DNA of 64,000 bases from assembly GCF_058153355.1 (NCBI RefSeq), contig NZ_CM177019.1. One strand, written 5' to 3'. How positions within the stretch are numbered: position 1 is the first letter of the stretch; every line of letters begins with the position of its first letter. Below are positions 61,114-62,872 of the stretch, piece after piece. The notes beneath the pieces were generated by a model. The model searched no databases. It was not told the DNA's origin and worked only from the letters and a program-made list of their open reading frames with translations. The translations under genes were made by a program, and so were the position numbers.

Positions 61114-61139
61114 AAAGAAAGCCCGGCGCTGAGGCCGGG
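61114..61139 (-). terminator. putative intrinsic terminator ending the cI-distal operon
   Basis: On the minus strand, hairpin cccggcctcagcgccggg followed by ctttcttt, about 10 nt after the stop of the 258-aa gene. Confidence 0.4.
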
Positions 61140-61146
61140 GTGATGA

Positions 61147-61923
61147 TTAAGAATTCACTCTATGGAGTATCTTTCTTGATATTGCGTTGATATCGGACAT
61201 ATCAGGAGCTATATCATTTGCTGCAAACATCAGCCTGTTGGAGTCTTTTTTGGGCAATTCAGACAAATTAGAACATATGGCAATTGAGTCAAATTGTTCA
61301 TTGTTTGCAGCAAGATGTTGCAATGTTATTGTCGTCAGTCTCGCCTTGTCCTTGTTCGCTATACCAAAAAGATACAGGGGGCGCGACGTGTTGGTTGTTA
61401 TCTTAAAGTCAATGGGATAATCTTGGCTATTCGGTACGTTTGCTAAGTAATTTTCAATAACATTATCTTCGCCAACAATATTAATAACAGCTTCTTTTAG
61501 ATCATCATAAAAACTTGACTCTGTTCTTGTTTTTGTCCACATGCCAATGTCATAAAGCCTTGTGATCCCCTGCCCAAATCTGAAAAGATTGCGCATTATT
61601 CCTGGAGTATCAGATAGAAGATAAATCTCACCATCATCATCTATCAACCCAGACTCTGTTAATAGTGAATGATATAGATTTCCTCTTGTGCCGTTGACAA
61701 TTCTATTTGTATCAAATTCGTAGCTCAATCTCATCATGGTTGTTCCCATGTCTGAGATTTTCCAACCTCCGGCATTTGGTTTTAGATATGCAACAATGAC
61801 ATCGCCATCTCTGGCAGTCATAGGCAGTGTAACGGCAACCATGCCATGACGCTGAGTTACGTACACCGAGCCACACAGGCTAGTGCAAATCTCTCTTTCT
61901 ATTGCGTCAAGGTCAATTGTCAT
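61147..61923 (-). CDS. hypothetical protein (258 aa), third gene of cI-adjacent operon
   Basis: ATG overlaps the upstream gene by 11 nt (ATGACAATTGA); no TM segment, Walker motif or other motif recognised. Confidence 0.6.
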   Translation of the reverse strand: MTIDLDAIEREICTSLCGSVYVTQRHGMVAVTLPMTARDGDVIVAYLKPNAGGWKISDMGTTMMRLSYEFDTNRIVNGTRGNLYHSLLTESGLIDDDGEIYLLSDTPGIMRNLFRFGQGITRLYDIGMWTKTRTESSFYDDLKEAVINIVGEDNVIENYLANVPNSQDYPIDFKITTNTSRPLYLFGIANKDKARLTTITLQHLAANNEQFDSIAICSNLSELPKKDSNRLMFAANDIAPDMSDINAISRKILHRVNS

Positions 61924-62404
61924 TTATCCAGTCTCTGGTCGGGTCTATTTCCGGTAGTTTCAGACCATTAATATTACAATCAGATATTAAACACATTAAA
62001 GCGGTATCACAACAGTTATACCTGTCTGTTTCGATAGCAAAATGCTCTGGTTTCCTTCCTGCCTCAATATATCTTTCAGTGGCTTTGTGTATGTGGTACT
62101 TATAGCTTACATCCTGCCCCTCTATTGGGTTTTCATGTGGATGATCGCAACCATTATATCTGATAAGTGTTACAGGCTCCCTGCCTGGGATCTCAATCCT
62201 AAGTCCACACGAAAAATTATCCGGCAAGATTGTATTCTGTCGGATGTAAAGAGTGTATTTTCTTTTCCCATCCATTGACTGCACATCATAGTTTTTTCTT
62301 CTTGATTTTCTTTGTTCAGTCCACCTTGCTTTTGGATTTTTAACTACTTTTTCCTCAGTAATGAATTGCTCAATTTGAGCATCTGTAAAAGTCACTCCAT
62401 CCAT
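61913..62404 (-). CDS. hypothetical protein (about 163 aa), second gene of cI-adjacent operon
   Basis: Track ORF 61913..62425 starts at TTG; internal ATG at 62404 preferred (MDGVTFTDAQ...); His/Cys-rich segment HPHENP...HIHK...CC. Confidence 0.55.
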   Translation of the reverse strand: MDGVTFTDAQIEQFITEEKVVKNPKARWTEQRKSRRKNYDVQSMDGKRKYTLYIRQNTILPDNFSCGLRIEIPGREPVTLIRYNGCDHPHENPIEGQDVSYKYHIHKATERYIEAGRKPEHFAIETDRYNCCDTALMCLISDCNINGLKLPEIDPTRDWINDN

Positions 62405-62470
62405 TTTCTGCCTGTTAAAAGTCAAAAAAGTATTGCATAAACAGTTGCCTATAACCAGAGGCCACTTTGG

Positions 62471-62812
62471 TCACCCAAAGAAACAGCAGTCTGGGTCTAC
62501 TCTGACGACTTCAAGCGCATCAGTCAGCGAAAGCTCAGTACTGTACTGATGCCATTTCATATCCTTCCGCATCCAATAGATTTTCCATCTATCCAGAGAA
62601 CGTATGTACTTGATTCTTGCTGATGGCAGGATGTTTGTTTCACCAGGATTGCCCTGCCACACGGGGCGCTGTTCACCGATATCTATCGTTTGGTCATTGA
62701 TGCTATAAACAATATCCAGTTCATTGCGGATATGTTCAGGCGGCCTTATGCTTTCAATGAATTGGTGAACTTCTTTTTTGACCGCTTGATATTCAAGGTC
62801 AGTGAACGCCAT
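62471..62812 (-). CDS. hypothetical protein (113 aa), first gene of cI-adjacent operon
   Basis: ATG preceded by strong RBS GAGGAGG (4-nt spacer), 60 bp after the cI stop; no motif recognised. Confidence 0.6.
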   Translation of the reverse strand: MAFTDLEYQAVKKEVHQFIESIRPPEHIRNELDIVYSINDQTIDIGEQRPVWQGNPGETNILPSARIKYIRSLDRWKIYWMRKDMKWHQYSTELSLTDALEVVRVDPDCCFFG

Positions 62813-62872
62813 CTATCCTCCTCACCCAAACGTCTCTTCAGGCCACTGGTTACCAGCTATGTGACGATGAAG

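Follow-up and report, generated by a model that had tools for sequence, protein, structure and literature searches.

A DUF6978-DUF1828 gene pair behind the repressor of a 933W-type prophage: a candidate two-protein anti-phage system

What is encoded between the repressor gene and the immunity-region terminator of the lambdoid prophage on contig NZ_CM177019.1 (assembly GCF_058153355.1)? The stretch of DNA analysed, here called the window, is 64,000 nucleotides (nt) long, and three genes of the prophage lie directly downstream of cI, at positions 61,114 to 62,872. The region from cI to N is a recognised hotspot of mosaic diversity and holds rexAB and bstA (PMC8585504). A preliminary description, made from the sequence alone, had taken the three genes for one candidate anti-phage or superinfection-exclusion system, composed of unrecognisable proteins and of a type that could not be named. 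Two questions follow: (i) whether the three genes belong together; and (ii) whether they can be placed among known or candidate defence families. Judged from the distribution of the genes in other genomes, the region is two independent modules and not a three-gene unit: module 1 is a single DUF3024 gene, and module 2 is a DUF6978-DUF1828 pair, whose first and second genes are called A and B below. That module 2 serves the lysogen as a two-protein defence against phages, B being a nuclease-type effector, is in our view about as likely as not.

The features of the region, in the direction of transcription, are these:

63588-63615, minus strand: presumed promoter of the cI-cargo transcript, at a position homologous to the annotated pM of 933W (mapped by homology alone)
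62873-63580, minus strand: cI repressor of the 933W immunity type, 235 amino acids, with helix-turn-helix and S24 peptidase domains (PHROG 'transcriptional repressor', 6.8e-49)
62813-62872, minus strand: spacer of 60 nt between cI and gene 1, with a GAGGAGG ribosome-binding site (read from the sequence)
62471-62812, minus strand: gene 1, DUF3024 protein of 113 amino acids, module 1 (Pfam and PADLOC PDC-S43 matches)
61913-62404, minus strand: gene 2 (A), DUF6978 protein of 163 amino acids, beta-rich, first gene of module 2
61913-61923, minus strand: stop/start overlap of genes 2 and 3, 11 nt, ATGACAATTGA (read from the sequence)
61147-61923, minus strand: gene 3 (B), 258 amino acids, DUF1828 N-domain and predicted restriction-endonuclease-like C-domain, second gene of module 2
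61114-61139, minus strand: intrinsic terminator, stem-loop at 61122-61139 and T-rich tail, homologue of the annotated 933W tM

Re-reading of the coordinates bore out the earlier account of three co-directional genes of 113, 163 and 258 codons that begin 60 nt past the cI stop codon. The ribosome-binding site, which lies 4 nt before the ATG of gene 1, and the 11-nt overlap could both be read directly. An alternative TTG start of gene 2 at 62425 would lengthen its product to 170 amino acids; the ATG, which gives 163, is the start chosen by RefSeq in the 99%-identical copy of Escherichia coli STEC299. The overlap suggests translational coupling of genes 2 and 3, and in distant members of the family to which the pair belongs the two genes likewise overlap, by 11 or by 4 nt, or abut directly. 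As had been noted, the DNA is AT-rich, with a GC content of 36-41% across genes 2 and 3 versus 44-47% across cI and gene 1, and the three proteins have neither a Walker A motif nor a transmembrane segment (the maximum 19-residue Kyte-Doolittle mean is 0.78-1.05 across the three).

Homology to the annotated 933W operators places oR3-oR1 at about 63573-63643. From cI to the end of gene 3 the sole terminator-like site on the minus strand is the hairpin described earlier, a 6-bp stem of GC pairs only (61122-61139) followed by CTTTCTTTG; such a site was looked for in the spacer between cI and gene 1 (62813-62872), and none was present. The hairpin is no stronger than those of shuffled sequences (z = -0.8), and the scan returned 6 sites in the region versus 3.0 expected. 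The terminator is credible because of its homologues rather than its strength: positions 61002-61139 align with the annotated tM region of 933W, and 61100-61145 with features annotated as 'immunity region terminator' in HK542 and H-19B-type phages. The number of promoter-like sites within the cassette (6) does not exceed that expected by chance (6.9), and an internal promoter is therefore not claimed.

The relation among the three genes emerges from the loci in which they recur. Two sets of loci carrying the pair were assembled, 41 viral loci from a scan of IMG/VR and 78 loci from a scan of one genome per species. Every one of the 41 viral loci, and 64 of the 78 genome loci, has A directly upstream of B, the two genes overlapping or abutting; the 14 genome loci without an adjacent A are mostly contig ends or fragments. 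The identities of A and B co-vary (r = 0.83, 86 loci), and downstream of the genes for distant DUF6978 proteins, at 32-34% identity, there is again a DUF1828 gene, which overlaps by the same 11 nt. DUF3024 is absent from every one of these 119 other loci. The gene 3 homologues in Pseudomonas aeruginosa prophages, a Xenorhabdus prophage and a Hydrogenophaga chromosome all have a DUF6978 gene directly upstream and no DUF3024. Elsewhere the partners of DUF3024 are an open reading frame (ORF)-Stk block in Erwinia, a P63C protein in Yersinia ruckeri and, in Kluyvera, where it stands behind a helix-turn-helix repressor, MqsA-like genes. The Erwinia case is a prophage remnant of Erwinia aphidicola (L013, 4001-6130) with the order DUF3024, 153-amino-acid ORF, Stk, small ORF and no adjacent cI; the Stk cassette is thus another travelling companion of DUF3024.

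At least three unrelated families supply the gene that separates cI from the pair in Pseudomonas prophages, and thus the position right after cI varies in its own right. The small ORFs found there were considered as divergent DUF3024 genes and rejected (best DUF3024 E-value 0.2, three unrelated families); they may be separate superinfection-exclusion genes. Among them is an 84-amino-acid ORF with two hydrophobic stretches, located between repressor and pair in P. aeruginosa prophages (L003, 5179-5433; also L031-L035). In two viral contigs (L051, 4887-5375; L039, 4972-5394) the gene directly upstream of the pair is thermonuclease-like or encodes a small helix-hairpin-helix protein, of which the helix-hairpin-helix region resembles the RpoA C-terminal domain and PglW. 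Such upstream genes appear to be further variable cargo of the slot.

The mosaic structure of the immunity region can be read against phage 933W. Positions 62471-64000 are 96.9% identical to the 933W locus (L001, 5001-6530) over a block that spans DUF3024, cI, oR/pM/pR and cro, and the two cI proteins are identical at 233 of 235 residues. This homology ends exactly at the stop codon of gene 1. In 933W, DUF3024 is followed by a 153-amino-acid ORF, labelled a RuvC-like resolvase in RefSeq, the Stk kinase and a small ORF, and then by tM, nutL and N; the 933W record places DUF3024, the ORF, stk and tM inside the pM transcript region. Stk is a prophage-expressed protein that is activated by HK97 infection and is involved in exclusion (PMC3681748). 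Since the 933W homology stops at the end of gene 1 and Stk follows there, genes 2 and 3 replace a known exclusion cassette. A kinship between DUF6978 and the ORF upstream of stk was considered and dismissed, as the DUF6978 profile matched no 933W ORF. The placement of the genes in the cI-to-N slot of a lambdoid prophage thus stands, the immunity being that of 933W and the slot being bounded by homologues of pM and tM.

A second comparison is provided by STEC299 (NZ_CP022279), an E. coli isolate from a marmot, in which genes 1-3 and the terminator are 99% identical to those of the window and lie behind a different repressor. From the two comparisons, therefore, recombination joints fall between cI and gene 1 (STEC299) and between gene 1 and gene 2 (933W), with none between genes 2 and 3. 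These joints, together with the absence of DUF3024 from the 119 loci, speak against the single three-gene system of the preliminary description. The two modules also differ in frequency. Part of the region query is matched by 696 of 5426 complete E. coli genomes, most of which, among the matches listed, cover cI and DUF3024, so that 933W-type immunity regions bring DUF3024 to about 13% of the complete genomes; for genes 2 and 3 the count is 1 of the 5426, namely STEC299.

The proteins themselves turn out to be recognisable, contrary to the initial account, since for each of them there is a matching DUF family in Pfam and a matching candidate model in PADLOC. Gene 1 encodes a DUF3024 protein (5.5e-31, residues 4-113 on profile positions 2-112 of 112) that matches PADLOC PDC-S43 from end to end (1.5e-41, residues 1-113 on 1-115 of 115), and its 933W orthologue, L0084/ST933Wp24, shares 109 of 113 residues. 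Gene 2 matches DUF6978 (6.2e-11) and, weakly, PDC-M24A (4.2e-7, residues 6-112 on profile positions 3-102 of 146), for which several DUF6978 relatives give no match at all. Gene 3 matches DUF1828 (residues 34-122, 5.2e-13) and, over its N-terminal half only, PDC-M24B (6.7e-11, residues 24-146 on 23-145 of 255); in relatives of gene 3 the PDC-M24B match reaches about residue 200, with E-values of 1e-13 to 1e-22. Over all sampled family members the E-values for PDC-M24B are 1e-9 to 1e-22, and PDC-M24A is matched weakly or not at all. Because the sampled members match the PDC-M24 models only moderately, the pair is best described, on profile evidence, as belonging to a DUF6978/DUF1828 superfamily that includes PDC-M24, as a sister clade of that catalogued candidate. 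Names can therefore be given to what had been left without one: PDC-S43 for gene 1, and the superfamily with PDC-M24 for genes 2 and 3.

The best PHROG families of the three proteins (phrog_3467, 27326 and 5059) are families of unknown function, the PADLOC matches are to PDC/HEC candidate models only, and none of the three belongs to an NCBIfam family. Across the alignments, 56 of 56 B homologues match DUF1828 and 76 of 131 A homologues match DUF6978; a Pfam scan of every member of both alignments added no further domain, which leaves the C-domain of gene 3 uncovered. DUF6978 amounts to 910 representative clusters at 50% identity. Sequence searches of the PDB with the three proteins and their family profiles gave nothing credible, and matches to AvrPto, a cytokine receptor and a methyltransferase (E 0.02-0.9) were dismissed as chance. 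N-terminal extensions of some DUF6978 homologues (203-262 amino acids) were also rejected as extra domains, since they look like miscalled starts in low-complexity sequence. According to passages of Payne et al. (bioRxiv 10.1101/2024.01.29.577857), the PDC are 145 computational phage-defence candidates with homologues embedded in BREX, DISARM or type I restriction-modification (RM) systems. Literature searches on DUF3024, DUF1828, DUF6978, PDC-M24, PDC-S43 and the 933W locus tags turned up no functional study, and the sole mention of PDC-S43 in the literature found is a prediction in an O157:H7 strain.

Outside the window, the pair is preceded at less than 1 kb by the end of a same-strand cI-like gene in 31 of the 41 viral contigs, and within 1.6 kb in five more; such a gene also precedes it in 11 of the 78 genome loci (Pseudomonas, Halomonadaceae, Stutzerimonas, Xenorhabdus, Veillonella and one metagenome-assembled Proteobacteria genome). 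Elsewhere the commonest recurrent neighbours are a type III-like methyltransferase (Mod; PADLOC MTase_III, 3e-164) and a restriction endonuclease of the BPTD_3080 family (Res; NCBIfam scores of 1087-1105 versus a cut-off of 800). A tight same-strand arrangement Mod-A-B-Res, with gaps of 4-53 nt, is found in Lentisphaerae, Chitinophagaceae, Verrucomicrobia, Nitrospirae and one uncultured lineage (L080, L103, L109, L110 and L111). These are type III-like RM operons (in L080 at 5001-11597) that encode a methyltransferase of 800-880 amino acids and a BPTD_3080 enzyme, with the pair between Mod and Res. Two cut contigs show A-B-Res (L099 and L106), three more loci have looser RM arrangements, and one viral contig has the order Mod-Res-A-B. 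No description of the conserved four-gene Mod-A-B-Res arrangement was met in the literature found, no search having been aimed specifically at it.

Other contexts are less frequent. A type IIG enzyme adjoins the pair in four loci, directly upstream and on the same strand in three of them (L075, L081 and L123), and further loci neighbour SIR2/pAgo-like, mad3-like or PDC-M28B-like genes. The pair occurs in archaea too, and in Hydrogenophaga it stands by itself between urease and xanthine-dehydrogenase genes. The cassette search in other prophages and defence islands thus located the pair in both settings, behind cI and inside RM operons, and found the complete three-gene set in STEC299 only. It is the relatives of the pair that are embedded in known defence systems, not the copy in the window. 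This independent context evidence points to phage defence as the putative role of the cargo genes.

An AlphaFold2 model of the gene 3 product (pLDDT 85.7, pTM 0.52) consists of two domains. The N-domain has a chaperone/YbjN-like predicted fold with an invariant acidic cluster, and residues 131-217 follow the order alpha-beta-beta-beta-alpha-beta, with no helices between the three strands, which is the order of the restriction-endonuclease core. Conservation was computed over 98 non-redundant B proteins: D39-G40-D41, D58, Y68, F138 and D172 are invariant, C13, C17, S213, D227, R230 and K251 are at least 94% conserved, and K193 and D192 are conserved at 91% and 89%. D172 lies on the second strand of the C-domain. 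K193 opens the helix that follows strand 3, a strand (LYLFG) devoid of acidic residues and lysine, and because the canonical (D/E)xK is absent from this strand, nuclease activity of B is inferred from the fold. A sequence-profile search of gene 3 against solved nucleases gave no match. For gene 2 the model has a confident predicted fold with no solved relative found. The histidine patch of gene 2 that had been pointed out is real: H88, H90, H104 and H106 are 96-99% conserved across the family. The cluster also contains invariant Lys/Arg residues and probably binds metal. An interface between A and B is plausible because their charges are complementary, with a basic and histidine-rich face on A and the acidic cluster on the N-domain of B.

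The scheme that we consider most plausible is as follows. In the lysogen, a pM-driven operon would carry cI, two independent cargo modules and tM, with the cargo presumably cotranscribed with cI. Module 1 is the single DUF3024 gene (PDC-S43), as part of the conserved 933W cI block, and module 2 the coupled A-B pair that takes the place of the 933W Stk cassette. Within module 2, the C-terminal restriction-endonuclease-like domain of B would cut nucleic acid, while its N-terminal chaperone-like domain, with the acidic cluster D39-G-D41, D58 and D71, would have a regulatory role. A is proposed as a binding partner that either keeps B inactive or senses the incoming phage. When a heteroimmune phage infects, the activity of B would then be freed, and the infection would be aborted or blocked. 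Decidedly more tentative is a broader proposal, that the pair is a mechanistically new, autonomous immune system of bacteria and archaea, in which a metalloprotein sensor of new fold switches on a chaperone-domain-gated nuclease; it would have been captured into the repressor operon by temperate phages of Pseudomonas and enterobacteria, and would elsewhere serve as a second line inside type III-like RM operons.

Several points weigh against module 2 as a nuclease-based defence system. The PDC families are computational candidates, and every member of the pair has the same status; two other PDC candidates were inactive in a native host (PMC12409345). The matches to PDC-M24 are weak and partial (4e-7 and 7e-11). 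The N-domain of B holds its most invariant residues and may thus be the active portion of the protein. An IS66 element is inserted between tM and N, and the prophage may be decaying, with all three ORFs intact. Finally, the pair is rare: besides the 1 of 5426 complete E. coli genomes, it occurs in 4 of 50,697 phage records, all from Pseudomonas, and in none of the plasmids of PLSDB.

The rival explanations are taken here in order of decreasing likelihood. Genes 2 and 3 could be a toxin-antitoxin-like addiction module that stabilises the prophage or an RM island and has no dedicated anti-phage role, with B as a toxic nuclease and A as its neutraliser. We consider this unlikely. In its favour, the two genes are small, run in the same direction and share a conserved stop/start overlap; they are strictly co-inherited, co-diverge, ride mobile elements and occur as solitary copies among housekeeping genes (Hydrogenophaga). 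However, no DNA-binding antitoxin domain and no match to a toxin or antitoxin family in Pfam, NCBIfam or PADLOC was seen in either protein, both are larger than typical type II partners, and their repeated placement in RM operons and downstream of cI is explained at least equally well by defence cargo. Addiction and defence roles of the pair are not mutually exclusive. That same placement could instead mean that the pair is an RM accessory, whether a regulator, a specificity or loading factor or a PrrC-like guard, which is not autonomous and of which the prophage copies act on RM systems of the host or phage. The tight Mod-A-B-Res operons (gaps of 4-53 nt, several phyla, always a BPTD_3080-type enzyme) and the further copies that abut type IIG enzymes point in this direction. 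We nevertheless regard it as quite unlikely: the order is not fixed (Mod-Res-A-B in L056, A-B-Mod-x-Res in L091, Res-Mod-x-B in L087), no such RM gene lies within about 6-7 kb in about 60 of the 78 genome loci and 40 of the 41 viral loci, and the window and STEC299 copies have no RM gene nearby.

A role in the prophage's own life cycle, such as modulation of repressor cleavage or induction or a recombination or repair nuclease, in place of exclusion, would account for the linkage to a cI-like repressor in 31 of 41 viral contigs. It also has a possible precedent, since Hex of phage 434 is reportedly co-expressed with the repressor from PRM (PMC3564112), and genes of the slot are said to be able to act on repressor function. 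Yet we think it improbable, as no repressor is nearby in 67 of the 78 genome loci, the family is widespread outside prophages, and the pair is found in RM operons and in archaea. Moreover, because the pair and the Stk cassette interchange behind the same cI, the function of cI is independent of the cassette. The reading of DUF3024, DUF6978 and DUF1828 as one three-component system gains something from the fact that genes 1-3 and the terminator have moved together, at 99% identity, between the window and STEC299 behind different repressors, and that no terminator separates the three genes. It is largely refuted by the distribution data and seems to us very improbable indeed: DUF3024 is missing from 119 of 119 other loci of the pair and is found with Stk, a P63C protein or MqsA-like genes instead, genes of three or more unrelated families stand between cI and the pair in the prophages of Pseudomonas, and PADLOC models DUF3024 as a single-gene candidate.

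If the A-B pair is active against phages, as the defence reading of module 2 proposes, it would become a validated defence family with an uncharacterised sensor fold, and a function would be at hand for two widespread DUF families. It would also mean that the cI-to-N slot in relatives of 933W-type Shiga-toxin phages swaps whole exclusion cassettes behind an unchanged repressor, and the exchange of Stk for the pair would have a bearing on the range of phages able to superinfect these lysogens. Layered immunity, in which restriction is backed by a guard, could be tested in a natural setting through the recurrent Mod-A-B-Res arrangement. For DUF3024, which users of PADLOC count as a defence system, even a negative result would be useful, given its presence in about 13% of complete E. 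coli genomes. New here are the strict A-B coupling across phyla, the linkage to cI in prophages, the Mod-A-B-Res arrangement with BPTD_3080 and the domain picture; the slot as a hotspot (rexAB, bstA and stk) and the status of PDC-S43 and PDC-M24 as catalogued candidates were already known.

Other elements of the window bear on the state of the prophage:

57094-61000, plus strand: IS66-family element with an 8-bp target duplication, GGATGAAG; TnpB at 59032-59379, transposase at 59399-60970
57213-58639: IS4-family element, 1427 bp, nested in the IS66 element
56507-56851: gene N

The IS66 element interrupts the pL/oL-nutL region about 120 bp past the immunity terminator, at a site within the stretch that separates tM from nutL in 933W. 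It separates the immunity region from gene N and so probably cripples early leftward expression, and the prophage may therefore be locked in. A second IS4-family copy, 100% identical to the nested one, is located at 46585-48011, with the end of the integrase gene of the prophage (48300-49373) about 290 bp away, and recombination between these direct copies could remove the prophage's left arm in its entirety. That arm includes two adjacent Ant-like anti-repressor genes (49654-50337 and 50656-51438) that share a 187-nt repeat at 78% identity and look like a diverged tandem duplication. The chromosomal backbone at 36000-46000 (yfaL, gyrA, ubiG and nrdA) shares only 90-95% identity with the majority of complete E. 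coli genomes and about 98% with a handful; on this evidence the host is probably a non-coli Escherichia or a member of a cryptic clade, not a typical E. coli.

It remains to set the region beside known systems. With lambda RexAB and BstA of Salmonella BTP1 it shares the position of cargo between cI and N and the presumed use of the repressor promoter, without implying a mechanistic relationship. That the genes are not RexAB, as was recognised at the outset, is confirmed: none of the three proteins is a polytopic membrane protein like RexB, and PHROG and NCBIfam reveal no sequence similarity to RexA or RexB. The Stk cassette has the same position, after cI and DUF3024 and before tM, behind a 97%-identical repressor block; the two cassettes have no sequence relationship, and Pfam scans of genes 1-3 gave no Pkinase match. 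In its predicted fold, the C-domain of gene 3 resembles PD-(D/E)xK nucleases (the PspGI/NgoMIV group; Can2, Card1 and NucC) at an identity of at most 14%, it lacks the canonical (D/E)xK on strand 3, and receiver domains score similarly. PrrC is almost exclusively embedded in type I RM systems, as cited in the passages of Payne et al. (bioRxiv 10.1101/2024.01.29.577857). Nesting between Mod and Res is likewise seen among relatives of the pair, although there is no sequence or domain similarity to PrrC-type guards, the RM partner is type III-like with BPTD_3080, and the window copy has no RM system nearby; a guard logic for the pair would thus be an analogy with PrrC alone. Among the catalogued candidates, gene 1 shows no difference in sequence from the PDC-S43 family. 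Genes 2 and 3 differ from PDC-M24 in that their matches are weak and partial and that a prophage setting downstream of cI is absent from the passages of Payne et al.; they share with it the order of A then B, adjacent and co-directional, the sizes of about 150 and then about 255 amino acids and, through their relatives, the embedding in RM operons by which, in the same passages, PDC candidates are defined.

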